Source: Candidatus Poribacteria bacterium
GTDB lineage: Bacteria; Poribacteria; WGA-4E; JAJDTR01
Direction of reading: 5' to 3'
NCBI GenBank assembly: GCA_965222225.1
Contig: CBDCTK010000002.1
Coordinates: 1,888,001-1,952,000 of the forward strand
DNA: 64,000 nucleotides
The notes under the pieces were generated by a model, which searched no databases, had not been told where the DNA came from, and worked only from the letters and a program-made list of their open reading frames with translations. The position numbers were made by a program, and so were the translations under genes. Positions 40,528 to 64,000 of this stretch are shown piece by piece (the first letter of the stretch is position 1; the number at the start of each line of letters is the position of its first letter).

Positions 40528-41353
40528 AACTAAAATCATCTCCCATAGCTTGTAGGGTGGGCACCGCCCACCATTTCCTGTAGTTTGTAGGGTGCGCACT
40601 GCGATTAAGCGAATGAATAATGAGCGCGATAGAAATCCTACCAGCATCTAAAGCCCCAGAGTGGGATCAAGGAAGCGAATAGCGACTGCGATAGGGATCC
40701 CACAGGTAGTAGCAGCCAACAATGAAAAAACTTCCGGCAAATGACTAAAAATGGCTGTGCCACCTATTATTCAACCAGGCTTTAAGGAGGGCGATAGAGA
40801 TCCACCGCCCACCAGCCTTTCAAGCCGTCAGAGCGGCGACAGTCGTATAGAACACCCATCGAACGTCCTCATCAATTCGTCGATTGTCCTTCTTATCCTG
40901 CATGTCTATAAAATAACGACATACCCAAATTCCGCGCTCTAGCAGAGCGCAATGTCGATAGCATAAATATGCCCGATGCCCCGCACTCCGGAGGAGTGCA
41001 ATGTCTTAAAACCCCCAGCGTGAAATCAAATACAAACAAACGAGCGAATAGCGGTCAACCGACTGATTAGCGAGGGATCAAGGAAATGGATAATGACCGC
41101 GATAGCAAATCCCGATAGAAATCCCGCGCGTTGGAGATTATCTCCAGCTTGCGACGAAACCGAGTTTTTTCCTCAAAACTCGGTTTCTGCCGCTCTTCCA
41201 TCCTTCCACTCTCGCCACTAACCACTAGCCACCGCTTTCCCCGTTTTCCCCTTCCCATTTCCTCCCCCGTGTGCTAAGATGAAAACCCATCTTCCAGTAG
41301 CCTGTACAACCCCTTCAGTTCCGTTACCCCCAATGATTAGACGGAGAGAATCA

Positions 41354-43292
41354 ATGAACTTCCGACAGAAACTCACACTCAATTTCTTGCTCTATATCGC
41401 GCTGTCCAGCGCCGCATTCGCGCAAGCCGTCGACATCCCCGACCCCAATCTCCGCGCCGCCATCGCGGCCGAGTTGAATATTGCCCGCGACGCTCCCATC
41501 ACCAAAGAACATATGCTCCGACTAGAAGACCTATCGGCCGCGAGTCAAGGTATAACCGACCTCACCGGTTTGGAATACGCAGCAGATCTGCAAAGTCTCA
41601 ACTTATGGGGAAACTCTTTTGACGACCTTACGCCGATTGCCCATCTTCCGCAGTTAAGCTATCTTAATATCGCCGGCTGCTCGATTATCGATATAACTGC
41701 CCTATCAAACTTAATCAACTTAACCGTTCTAAATGTTCGATACAATTTCATAGTTGATATCAGCCCGCTCACACACCTCACAAACCTTGTCGAGTTACGG
41801 CTAAACGACAACAAAATTACCGATATTAGCCCTTTGGATGGGTTGACTAAACTTCAATTCTTGGAAATCCAACACAACCAAATAACCGACCACAGCCCGC
41901 TAGACACACTCGCGCTTTCTCATTTTATCTACGACCAAACATGTGAAATGCCGCCTCTGCCGCTTGAGCCCCGACTGGAAAATCGAAACTACCCGTCGAT
42001 ATTTGCTCGCTGGAGCGGATTCGGTGGCACTCCTGTTACTAATCGTCCCAATCTATCGGAGGCAGAAAATCTTGCGCTTCACGACCTTCGTTTTGCTGTC
42101 CATCCGTTTGGATTAAAATTCCTCAATGTGCGCGACGGATTTAAGATGACGGGCGATGTTGACCGCGCAATAAGTCTGCGCGACGAAGTGCTTGCTGCTA
42201 ATCCGAATATCATCACTCTTGTAGATGTTCGGCTGAGAGGTGAGGGTTTGCACATACTGGGGGAGGACTGCCATATTGGATAAGAGACGAGCATGGAAAC
42301 ATCTTCCGAGAAAATACAAACGGAATCATAGCGGATTACGGCTTAATCGATTTCACAAACCCCGCCGTTCAAGATATCATCGTCCAACAAGCTGTTGCCG
42401 TATCGAAGTGCGGTTTGTATGACGGGATTGTTTTTGATTACTGGTCAGAGCAATGGCGCGTGCTTGGTGGTTGGGATGGCACGCGCCATCGCTCTTTTCG
42501 CACTTTGGAAGAAGAATTGCGTGCTCGAGAAACGATTGTACAACGCATCCGGGCGGAGACGCGTCCGGATTTTCTGATTATGGGCAATACGAATTACTTC
42601 ATAATTCCTAATACCGGATATATGTAAACGGTGGCTTTATGGAAACCGGCATTCCAGAAAACCGCACGGGCGTCGATTTGGAACGTGTCATCAATGCGAC
42701 TGAAAATGCATTGACATGGCTCGAAAACAACTTGCGAGAACCGCGAATAAACGCGCTCGAAGGTTTTAGCATTCCAGGAGAAGCCCTAGACAGCCCGAAC
42801 AATCGGCGCTGGGCGCGCGCTTTAACAACTCTAAGCTTAACTCACTCGGACGGCTACGTGCTGTACAGCGAAAGTGGGGTATTCTCACACCACTAGTATG
42901 ACTTTTGGGATGCGGATTTAGGGCGTCCAGTGGGGGAGAAGGCACAGGTGTATGAGGGGAGAGAAGGCCTTTACATCCGCGAGTTTACGAATGGTTGGGC
43001 AGTGTACAACCACAGCGGAGCCCCCCAGGTCATCACGTTGCCCGAAGAGGTGCAGGGCGTCGCCAGCGAGCGGTTGGGTGAACACGCAGCACGCGCTGCC
43101 GAATATCGACGGGGAGATGTATCTGCGAGTGAAACCGAAGAATCCCGCCGATGTCAACCGCGACGGCGTGGTAAATATCCTGGACCTGACATTGGTCGCC
43201 CAAGCCTTTGGCACCGACAAGCCCCAAGGCGACGTGAATGGGGATGGGGTCGTCAGTGTGTTCGATCTCGTGTTCGTAGCCAACGAATCTAA
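41354..43292 (+). pseudogene. Secreted LRR + putative TIM-barrel/glycosidase-like + dockerin-like protein, broken by frameshifts and a stop
   Basis: Signal peptide and LRRs, then fragments in shifting frames (YDGIVFDYW, REFTNGWAVYN, DVNRDGVVNILDL); breaks near 42270, 42615, 42894 and 43070. Confidence 0.8.
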
Positions 43293-43760
43293 AATCCTGT
43301 TTGAAAATTCATTTCGGGTAGAACTTTTGCCCTGAAACCGAGTATTTTCTTGAAAACTCCGTTTCTTTCTTGCGCAAACCCGTAGGGTGCGCACTGCGCA
43401 CCAGCTTTTGTAAGCCCAGAGTGGGATCAAGGGAGCGAATAGTGAGTGCGATAGAAATCCTGACAGGTGTATAGCAGGCGACCACAAAAGCATGAAAAAG
43501 CCGCGCCCACAGTGACCGAAATTGCTTTGCCACCTATTATTCAAACAAGCTCTAAATCACGGATTAAAGGCGGACAATCTTTTAATCCAACACAGTTTTG
43601 AGATTCGGAGGCCAACGCATACGCATAATTAGGCAAATGACGCCGGTTGCATCGAAGACGATTTGTCGAATTCAATCCGATCAAGCGAGTGAATATCGAG
43701 TGATCAACTGAACGAATAGTGAAGGCGATAGAAGATCCTGATAGCAAATCCGCGATTCAG

Positions 43761-43856
43761 ACAATCGCCCAAGCCTTCGGCACCGACAAGCCCGAAGGCG
43801 ACGTGAATGGTGACGGCGTCGTCAACGTCTTCGACCTCGTCCTCATAGCAAACTAA
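43761..43856 (+). pseudogene. Orphan dockerin-like 3' gene end, paralogous to 43195-43290
   Basis: AQAFGTDKPEGDVNGDGVVNVFDLVLIAN*, just downstream of a nested hairpin element. Confidence 0.75.
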
Positions 43857-63180: not shown

Positions 63181-63356
63181 GTGCGTTGTCCTTAGTTCGA
63201 ATGTCAGGAGCTAAAGTTCCAGTCTACAGGAGCGATGGAAAATAGAGTTCGGGTCTCGGTTCCTGGCGATGATGGGCAATAAGAGAAGAACTCGGCGATT
63301 CGATAACGGATTTCTCTCGCAGGTCTTGCTATCGCCCTCGCTATTCACTCGGTTGA

Positions 63357-63464
63357 TCCCCATCGATCCCGGTACACGTCGACAGCCTCTCCGAGTTCGG
63401 GCAGCCGCATCGTCGTGGTGAGGTCCGGCAGTGCGGATTTGAAGTCGTTTTCGGTAATCTTCAT
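63357..63464 (-). pseudogene. Diverged second copy of the penicillin acylase 5' end
   Basis: MKITENDFKSALPDLTTTMRLPELGEAVDVYRDRWG, cut off at the inverted hairpin element. Confidence 0.88.
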
Positions 63465-64000
63465 TTCCATTGTCCGTATATCATGCATTCTAAAGTACGT
63501 TTGTAGGGTGGGATCAAAGGAACGGATAGTGACTGCGATAGAGTTCCCCTGCCCACCATTTCTTTTAGGATACGATTGTAGATTGTCAAATCCCCGATTT
63601 TCCCTCTTACTGGAATTAGACAAACGAATAATGAATGCTATAGACCTCTTAGAGAGTTCCCACTAGCACCGTAGGCGGGGCATCTTGCCCCGCCCACAGC
63701 TAACCTGTAGGAGCGAGTTCCACTCGCGACTCTGTAGGATTAAACGAGCGAATAGCGAGTGCGATGGAGATCCCGCTGCCCCACATTGGAAAGACTTCAT
63801 TACCCTAAGTTGCCATCTTTGTAGCACGATCTGTTAGATTGTGCATGTGATACGCAAACTGACACATTGCGCGACTACATCTACACAATTAATCGTCTAT
63901 GTTCAATAAAAATTGATGGGGATTGTCTATATTCTTCTAAGTAACAACTTGGGTCAATTAACAAAATTCGCCATCCGTGTAGCACAATCTGTTAGATTGT

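Follow-up and report, generated by a model that had tools for sequence, protein, structure and literature searches.

A 36-base hairpin repeat of a Poribacteria genome, apparently a very small mobile DNA element that inserts into hairpins

The closest precedent for the repeat described here is provided by the small dispersed repeat (SDR) elements of cyanobacteria. To our knowledge, those bacteria are the source of the one earlier report on mobile modules of so small a size: Elhai and colleagues are said to have described, in 2008, SDR1-8 of Nostoc punctiforme and its relatives as noncoding and seemingly mobile modules of tens of nucleotides, reportedly 21-27 nt long, with no enzyme identified. 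We analyzed a stretch of 64,000 nucleotides (the window) from a Candidatus Poribacteria bacterium (assembly GCA_965222225.1, contig CBDCTK010000002.1, positions 1,888,001 to 1,952,000), which holds 30 arrays of a short hairpin-forming repeat (the element), 27 of them on the + strand. This 36-base repeat, inserted in the genome hundreds of times without target-site duplication (TSD), is apparently among the smallest mobile DNA elements seen. The reading that we favor, with moderate confidence, is that this is a non-autonomous mobile DNA element of very small size, spread by enzyme-mediated, hairpin-recognizing and strand-specific insertion.

The element was set beside the SDR elements by their descriptions. 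As in their case, a very short dispersed module is inserted precisely into a palindromic repeat, and nothing is duplicated. The SDR5/HIP1 junction, as described in PMC4390886, resembles the junction found here, which lies after (C/G)G with ATC next. The differences concern the host, which is a member of Poribacteria with no Photo_RC gene found and only 120 HIP1 sites in the genome, the length of the unit (36-37 nt), and the targets, which are repetitive extragenic palindromic (REP) sequences of the GTAG type and other hairpins.

Larger elements with a preference for REP hairpins are also known. The insertion sequence (IS) IS1397 is said to insert into the palindromic units contained in bacterial interspersed mosaic elements, and a survey by Tobes and Pareja of 2006 reportedly listed REPs as IS targets. 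REP hairpins are preferred insertion targets both there and here, but REP-targeting IS elements are full-length and transposase-encoding, and either produce a TSD (IS3 family) or use IS110/IS1111 chemistry, whereas the element is 36 nt long, duplicates nothing, and resides in a genome in which domain searches found neither an IS110-family gene nor a TnpB-type domain. Class C group II introns and integron attC sites illustrate the choice of folded single-stranded hairpins instead of a long fixed sequence; they require, however, a ribozyme and a reverse transcriptase, or an integrase and an attC of 60-140 nt, and nothing such is contained in 36 nt. Pneumococcal BOX elements (A-Bn-C) reportedly form modular arrays of 45-59-nt modules, and RUP is said to insert into BOX. 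The arrays described below are similar in having a variable number of internal units and in being small repeats that land in repeats, but their sequence is unrelated, and nesting at one defined base does not account for BOX. Literature searches with motif strings of the element matched only unrelated primer papers, and no report of such repeats in Poribacteria was among the 15 papers listed out of 459 matches. What is new here is a very small, apparently mobile repeat in a new phylum, together with its covariation-defined hairpin, its junction rule, and its REP, MITE (miniature inverted-repeat transposable element) and self targets.

The genome comprises 5.70 Mb in two contigs (about 50% G+C), and its commonest 11-mers derive from this repeat; "sponge metagenome" is the label of one public study containing this stretch. 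The element is modular, with an L unit followed by an R unit. The L unit has 23 nt (GATCAA-NN-GA-NN-GRAYA-NN-GA-NN) and is present in 1562 genome copies with two or fewer mismatches, and the R unit reads GCGATAG-ARA-TCC (GCGATAGARATCC). The strict form, defined as GATCAA, 12-20 nt, GCGATAG, 2-4 nt and TCC, occurs in 546 genome copies, of which 343 are 36 nt and 196 are 37 nt long. The left end of the element is always exactly GATCAA. In arrays, all L units stand ahead of all R units, the commonest compositions being LR (419), LLR (76), LRR (51) and LLRR (44).

That the L unit is a hairpin followed from covariation. Among 770 perfect L units, representing 307 haplotypes, positions 6-7 covaried with positions 21-22 (mutual information of 1.73 bits) and positions 10-11 with 17-18 (1.64 bits). 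In the 40 copies of the window, 91.9% of cells were standard-paired, as compared with 58.3% in shuffles, double changes were present in 63 cells and at all four pairs, and neither the covariation score nor the percentage paired was reached in any of 500 shuffles. The signal was lost when the 3' partner was slid. The invariant GA dinucleotides are opposite each other (GA/GA in 1291/1562 L units), so that a tandem G.A is implied at the center of the stem, and the loop is GAATA or GGATA in 1076/1562 units. The layout on the GATCAA strand is thus 2 bp, tandem G.A/A.G, 2 bp and a GRAYA loop. As G.T pairs outnumber A.C pairs (653 versus 246 among 6248 cells), the GATCAA strand is the folding strand. 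We infer that this structure is read by a protein; if so, only copies that keep the hairpin would propagate, as the covariation shows. Stem subfamilies differ in their context, CT/AG copies being mostly nested in elements and AG/CT copies mostly at the loop site of a REP, which reflects either amplification of composite units or subfamily-specific targeting. A guide-like link between stem haplotype and target was considered and rejected, the subfamily preferences that do exist being confounded by the amplification of composite units.

The empty and filled REPs that a preliminary description of this stretch had named were all present when the sequence was read directly, and elements stood, as it had stated, behind the REP starts GTAGGTTGG (at 38936 and 49637), GTAGGAGG (46481) and AGCCCCAG (34644, 40665 and 43425). 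The REPs in question have the features of GTAG REPs: a 5' GTAG, a short G+C-rich imperfect palindrome, high copy number and an extragenic location. The sites of the window are as follows (carets mark the boundaries of insertion):

34366-34443, + strand: filled REP (GTAGGTTGG..ACCGCCCACC) that has a single G>T mismatch and contains two L units and one R unit at 34375-34433
34644: element after AGCCCCAG (likewise at 40665 and 43425), from the sequence read
38936-38971, + strand: LR element after GTAGGTTGG, from sequence and architecture
40552-40572, + strand: empty GTAG REP GTAGGGTGGGCACCGCCCACC, read directly; 7-bp stem and 3-nt loop, -8.0 kcal/mol, z -3.6
40587-40645, + strand: filled REP with the element (40603-40638) in the 3' arm, GTAGGGTGCGCACTGCG^[ATTAAG..AAATCC]T^ACCAGC
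40665-40700, + strand: LR element in the MITE hairpin AGCCCCAG..GGGG^CG^ACAGGT, from sequence and architecture
43382-43405, + strand: empty GTAG REP GTAGGGTGCGCACTGCGCACCAGC within a MITE copy, read directly; 7-bp stem and 3-nt loop, -8.8 kcal/mol, z -3.0
43425-43460, + strand: LR element in this MITE copy's second hairpin, with an empty paralogue at C2:3957832-3957952
46481-46529, + strand: LR element in the REP GTAGGAGGGG^CA(T)^CTTGCCCC, preceded by GTAGGAGG
49637-49672, + strand: LR element after GTAGGTTGG, from sequence and architecture
52435-52495: inverted nesting at a host L-R junction, with an L unit on the + strand (52435-52457) and a complete element on the - strand (52459-52495)
58195-58218, + strand: empty GTAG REP GTAGGGTGCGCAGTGCGCACCAGC, read directly
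59254-59359, + strand: triple nested array L1[L2[L3R3]R2]R1 within a GTAGGGTGG REP, each host copy being split after a G near its L-R junction
60611-60631, + strand: empty GTAG REP GTAGGGTGGGCACTGCCCACC, read directly
60738-60833, + strand: filled REP with an LLRR array (60754-60825) in the 3' arm, CGCACCGCG^..^ACCAGCC
63503-63557, + strand: filled REP with an LR element (63512-63547) in place of CA, at the top of the 5' arm/loop of GTAGGGTGGG^CA^CTGCCCACC

Empty counterparts of these filled sites are common in the genome. The empty form of the REP at 40587-40645, CGCACTGCG-C-ACCAGCC, is present in 39 copies, and that of the REP at 63503-63557, GTAGGGTGGG^CA^CTGCCCACC, in 48. A regular expression for the empty MITE hairpin gave 26 matches with a 7-nt interior, and most of the 13 shown read AGC(C/G)CCAGCGGGGCGACAGGT. 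The paralogue at C2:3957832-3957952, which lacks the element of the 43425-43460 site, is 92.6% identical to the joined flanks of that site over 120 nt. The type of junction seen at 52435-52495, TCTCTATCG^C^ACTCGC, recurs across the genome.

The genome-wide alignment of flanks that had been proposed as a check gave the same picture. An exact empty site of 9+9 nt was present elsewhere in the genome for 162/1223 elements, but only for 27/1223 when flanks were paired at random. With flanks of 60+60 nt and at least 30 nt aligned on each side, 151/640 arrays rejoined into a contiguous paralogous empty site, as compared with 0/640 random intergenic pseudo-elements and 8/640 pseudo-elements placed in repeat-rich neighborhoods. 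Most of these long pairs are copies of a MITE of about 200-260 bp, which has the ends GAGCCTGTTTGAA...TTCAAACAGGCTC, contains AGCCCCAGCGGGGCGACAGGT as a second hairpin besides the GTAGGGTGCGCACTGCGCACCAGC REP, and is present in at least 23 genome copies (in the window at about 40580-40783 and at 43370-43560). Its copies were found in three states: with both sites empty (C2:3957780), with only the second site filled (window 43360-43570), and with both filled (window 40570-40800). Similarly, copies of the REP family GTAGGGTG-x-CACCA fall into two main length classes, 165 with an x of 9 nt and 30 with an x of 43-44 nt; longer multiples are also present, and neither excision footprints nor intermediate lengths were seen among these 165+30 copies. 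GTAGGGTG itself has 414 genome copies, and the 165-copy family with the 9-nt interior shows G-C/C-G covariation.

One and the same REP position can hold elements of unrelated hairpin haplotypes. At the loop site of one REP (site a), 6 distinct element sequences were counted among 14, a figure of 11/14 identical elements being also given for this site, and at the 3'-arm site of the same REP (site b) there were 7 distinct sequences among 9. The haplotypes at one position differ by several compensatory changes of the stem, which indicates independent events, in addition to the amplification of filled composites. Moreover, elements are nested in other elements in both direct and inverted orientation. 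L units are most often spaced by 23 nt (158 cases), followed by 19 nt (77), and the residual junctions C|ATAG, CGTGCG|ATAG and TG|ATAG are those expected if the host copy was entered after its G23 or G19. The element thus targets the 3' side or the foot of the L hairpin of a resident copy, and this produces arrays in which all L units precede all R units. As L and R units are equal in number in only 492/955 arrays, pure nesting of complete units does not explain everything. Taken together, the states of the MITE, the bimodal length of the REP family, the haplotypes, and the nesting in both orientations support well, by comparison of paralogues only, the proposal that true insertion events took place.

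Comparison with other genomes pointed to a fast turnover of the regions concerned. In nine genomes of the same genus, a flanking gene was 82-88% identical, and the intergenic regions differed in their REPs and elements and did not align. The region between the gene of a MoeB-like protein and that of a small zinc-ribbon-like protein (window 38017-39481) is 1.46 kb long; by eye, it has about 300 nt in two congeners, and in an element-poor sister genus it has about 75 nt and no repeats. Accretion of REPs and elements appears to have enlarged the region. Short Logan contigs from four public runs of four studies, compared with window positions 34000-53999, ended at repeats, and all joints had sides of less than 30 nt. 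A metagenome scan with the neighboring MoeB-like protein gave one close relative (88% identity, on a 3.4-kb contig) and no strain-level contigs.

The rejoined sites define a junction rule. In 128/135 cases, a G was already present in the empty site at the first position of the element. Among 77 collapsed target classes, T was absent at -2, where C (0.56) and G (0.31) prevailed; the base at -1 was G, and that at +1 was C (0.49) or A (0.31). The base that follows ..ATCC was mostly C or T. As to the fate of the target, the preliminary description was right in that nothing is duplicated: there was no TSD in 419 single LR elements, the sole recurrent direct repeat being the element's own ATC...ATC, which was found in 306/419 cases and in 302/419 after shuffling. 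Its estimate that about two (1-3) target bases are replaced holds for 64 of the 77 classes, in which 1 (34 classes), 2 (12) or 3 (18) bases were lost, and fails for the 4 classes with no loss and the 9 with a loss of 4-6 bases. The recurrent targets are as follows:

GGTGCG^CA^CTGCGCACC: 62 empty copies
CACTGCG^C^ACCAGCC: 39 empty copies
GTAGGAGCG^A^TCTCCGAAT: 45 empty copies
GTAGGCGGGG^CAT^CTTGCCCC: 15 empty copies
GGGTTGGG^TCT^CCCAACCC
GGAATAACG^A^TCGTTATTCC, a palindrome
the MITE hairpin and the element itself

These targets narrow one part of the first interpretation and widen another. Insertion into REP stems was correctly read for the 3'-arm site (CACTGCG^C^ACCAGC), but the other common site (GGTGCG^CA^CTGCGCACC) involves the loop and the top of the 5' arm, and many insertions are in hairpins other than REPs or in other copies of the element. 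To call the element a parasite of REPs is too narrow, as GTAG or CTAC is near only 472/1223 elements, and the commonest single target is the L-R junction of another copy. Finally, that folded DNA and not one fixed sequence is targeted turned out to be only partly right: at least 12 unrelated hairpins are targeted, but a weak sequence rule also exists. Simple complementarity of the flanks was rejected as the determinant, perfect matches of at least 5 bp being present in 16.3% of 640 arrays and in 7.3% of both controls.

The orientation of the element is not random with respect to the target. Relative to the GTAG side of the REP, 415 copies were co-oriented and 38 inverted (335 versus 38 distinct combinations, a ratio of about 9:1). 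The elements also preferred the C-rich strand, both with GTAG nearby (273 versus 90) and without it (399 versus 190), and their strand correlated with skew (Spearman -0.57 over 93 bins of 50 kb). However, the bias was the same in empty REPs (180/253, 0.71) and in filled ones (88/120, 0.73; Fisher p 0.71), which makes it a property of the REP/MITE/element system as a whole. Polarity with respect to the GTAG side is a stronger clue to a strand-specific process than the bias towards the C-rich strand. Along the 5.6-Mb contig, GC skew flips its sign many times, with no two-arm pattern, and the orientation of REPs and elements flips along with it; these repeated flips suggest many past inversions, or a skew that is not set by replication alone.

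New copies stand directly 3' of a G, most often one with the surroundings (C/G)G^(C/A), in or beside a short hairpin. In the mechanism that we propose, a trans-acting protein would recognize the conserved L hairpin. The insertion would act on one folded DNA strand, and the candidate enzymes would be of the single-strand HUH class (Y1, RAYT-like). A Y1 HUH enzyme seems the most plausible mover, because this class fits the recognition of a single-stranded hairpin, the lack of duplication and the GTAG-linked polarity. A more specific version can be put forward tentatively: the element may be a single-strand micro-transposon, in which a 36-nt unit with one 23-nt hairpin (tandem G.A, GRAYA loop) is sufficient, and a candidate enzyme chooses an exposed G^C at or beside any small hairpin, and hence parasitizes the REP/RAYT system, MITEs and the element itself.

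Several known systems of this class share features with the element. In IS200/IS605 elements, palindrome-associated transposable elements (PATEs) and the RAYT-REP/REPIN system, hairpins of single-stranded DNA are recognized, no TSD is formed, and orientation is strand-specific; Y1 HUH genes are also present here, the best of them, possibly a RAYT, being flanked by inverted REP/MITE copies. According to PMC3479197, E. coli TnpA-REP needs GTAG and a hairpin and cuts at a CT dinucleotide, which may be compared with the 3' boundary of the element, often ..ATCC|T, and with the loop-site target, which resumes at the C|T of the loop. The differences from IS200/IS605 and RAYT systems are that each unit has one hairpin, that there is no fixed target word of 4-5 nt, that 1-3 bases are lost, that no cognate full-length element was found in the genome, and that the Y1 genes tested do not share the distribution of the element. 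Assignment to any of the related classes was rejected. As a PATE derived from IS200/IS605, the element has only one hairpin per unit, no recurrent L...R pair encloses a gene, and no TnpB-type domain was found; its insertion does not duplicate the target but is not seamless, the target being only (C/G)G^(C/A) and 1-3 bases being lost in most classes. It is not a classical MITE with terminal inverted repeats of 15-30 bp and a TSD, as its ends share only GATC/GATCC, nor a REPIN, which consists of two inverted REPs in one long hairpin, as its unit is a single hairpin of a 4-bp stem with G.A and has no GTAG.

Five Y1_Tnp loci were found in the genome, and the search of four families revealed no other genes of transposase type (the Y2_Tnp search was uninformative, as its control matched no genome). 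The best of them, at C2:3080258-3080728, encodes a RAYT-like protein of 157 aa that scored 65.8 bits with the IS200 model (cut-off 55) and 30.6 with REP_Tyr_transpos (cut-off 80), and is flanked by inverted REP/MITE copies carrying elements. The MITE (GAGCCTGTTTGAA...TTCAAACAGGCTC) that flanks this gene as an inverted pair may be the REPIN equivalent of this genome. An autonomous copy of the element was sought among 1736 L...R pairs within 6 kb, which were tested for rejoining flanks, and no recurrent pair enclosed a gene. The 53 rejoining matches among these pairs were read as coincidences, in which two complete elements reside in REPs of one family, and the sole candidate consisting of an L-only and an R-only part proved on inspection to be two separate filled REPs.

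The distribution of the element was followed in a sample of 121 genomes of the order. It was present in all ten genomes of the genus g1 (330-860 strict copies each) and in all four of the genus g4 (114-137 strict copies each), and it is thus abundant in two genera that belong to different families of one order. It was not found in the 74 genomes of f2 and the 7 genomes of f4 sampled. Most of the genus g6 was free of it, one g6 genome having 14 copies on four contigs, and 1-2 copies were found in four other genomes of the sample (G010, G041 and G043 among them). The g4 copies have kept the L hairpin and GCGATAG and have a different R end; some of the 14 copies inspected were in the loops of REPs of the GTAGGYTGGGT type. 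In a scan of a genome collection with one genome per species, the best 80 of at least 99 matching stretches were all from metagenome-assembled genomes of Poribacteria; on this ground, and as no Photo_RC gene was found, a cyanobacterial origin was rejected. The few copies in the otherwise element-free genomes G059 (contigs C72, C83, C91 and C116) and G010 (C38 and C42) are on few contigs, some near contig ends, and could represent mis-binned g1 contigs or transferred islands.

All four g4 genomes carry some Y1_Tnp gene. Another Y1 protein, REP_Tyr_transpos-like and of 247 aa, has a history of its own: its copy at locus L012 (G000:C2:2563965-2564705) is 99% identical to that at G005:C1:3780663-3781403, whereas a housekeeping gene of the two genomes is 84% identical at the DNA level, and most of the genus lacks the protein, a pattern suggestive of recent horizontal transfer. 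Both this protein and the RAYT-like one were rejected as the enzyme of the element, since neither is co-distributed with it.

Several observations weigh against enzyme-mediated, hairpin-recognizing insertion. Of the 121 genomes, 78 carry the RAYT-like Y1 gene, many of these being without the element, and the gene was not found at E<=1e-10 in two of the four g4 genomes; the 247-aa Y1 protein is present in 47/121 genomes and in 0/4 of g4. Known HUH transposition of IS608 is seamless, whereas here 1-3 bases are lost, the right junction is variable, and L and R are unequal in nearly half of the arrays. The strand bias had to be dropped as independent evidence for replication-coupled insertion, as filled REPs did not exceed empty ones in bias. 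The folding of rejoined flanks is only moderately better than that of controls (mean of -3.84 versus -2.9 kcal/mol; -4 or lower in 43% versus 25%), and nearest-neighbor energy rules for standard DNA do not recover the L hairpin. The pairs of empty and filled sites are polarized by parsimony only, from paralogues. Lastly, partial units and a loss of 1-3 bases are about as compatible with a copy-choice process.

Such a process would do without a dedicated enzyme. A polymerase would stall at a hairpin of the template, and the nascent end would switch to an element through a microhomology of 1-4 nt (G or GATC on the left, C on the right), copy all or part of it, and return. The small and variable loss of target bases, the variable base after ..ATCC, the partial units, and the unequal numbers of L and R would all be accounted for, and so would the G that target and element have in common at nearly every rejoined site and the up to four shared bases (GATC) in the targets GTAGGAGCG^ATC and AACG^ATCG; it also agrees with copy-choice that no enzyme is co-distributed with the element. 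However, a homology of 1 nt is very little for events that are repeated and precise in position, and neither the invariable GATCAA at the left end nor the sharp length classes of 36 and 37 nt would be expected. The strictly conserved unpaired bases and the covariation in the L stem imply a specific recognition factor, and the patchy occurrence, which covers two genera from separate families but no f2 or f4 genome sampled, looks like that of a transferable system. We consider copy-choice unlikely.

Enzyme-mediated insertion also has to be set against the view that the element is not independent, but is an internal module of variant REP and MITE families that are copied whole by a RAYT, the apparently empty copies having lost the module. 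Composites do amplify, as the identical elements at site a and the multi-copy filled MITE testify, and filled and empty REPs have the same strand bias. Yet the module is found in at least 12 unrelated flank contexts and within itself in both orientations, unrelated haplotypes occupy the same site, there are no direct repeats that could mediate a precise loss, and footprints of intermediate length are missing from the 165+30 REP copies, so that we regard this view as very improbable.

Least probable of all is that the L hairpin is a motif selected by the host, a structured RNA or a protein-binding site (in transcript stability or nucleoid organization, for example) that spread mainly by recombination between repeats: although covariation that tolerates G.U on one strand, conserved unpaired bases and an almost exclusively intergenic location (47/616 elements inside crude open reading frame calls) would suit such a motif, orientation is independent of the neighboring genes (200 elements in the same and 178 in the opposite direction), no Rfam 15 family matched the 64-kb window at the gathering score, the two matches at E up to 5 in 34300-46700 were at chance level and overlapped no element, and neither the precise placement in other hairpins, nor the nesting, nor the wholly different repeat content of the same intergenic regions in different species is explained.

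The element provides clean material, with hundreds of copies, a covariation-defined hairpin, a junction rule, many pairs of empty and filled sites and a restricted host range, and this combination makes the search for an enzyme tractable by phylogenetic profiling and oligonucleotide assays. It also means that REP and MITE hairpins can themselves be colonized, and that the intergenic regions of these sponge symbionts turn over fast. Such repeats fragment short-read assemblies, the contigs of public runs breaking at them. If the single-strand micro-transposon proposed above is real, it would be the smallest structured mobile DNA known, and the same mechanism might explain the cyanobacterial SDR modules.

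Upstream of the MoeB-like gene, two relatives (G001 and G002; loci L002 and L003, at about 2780-2860) carry tandem heptamer-like repeats (..ggtcactagccactggtcactggccactgcc..), which recall the STRR repeats of cyanobacteria. The coding part of the window includes four large, secreted-looking proteins:

41279-42283, + strand
46702-49584, - strand
49913-52372, - strand
52701-56552, - strand

These four have leucine-rich repeats (with internalin-like matches) or TolB-type beta-propellers, and the three on the - strand also have C-terminal sorting domains of the type IX secretion system. The leucine-rich repeat and beta-propeller proteins of the window resemble the eukaryote-like repeat proteins that are typical of sponge symbionts.

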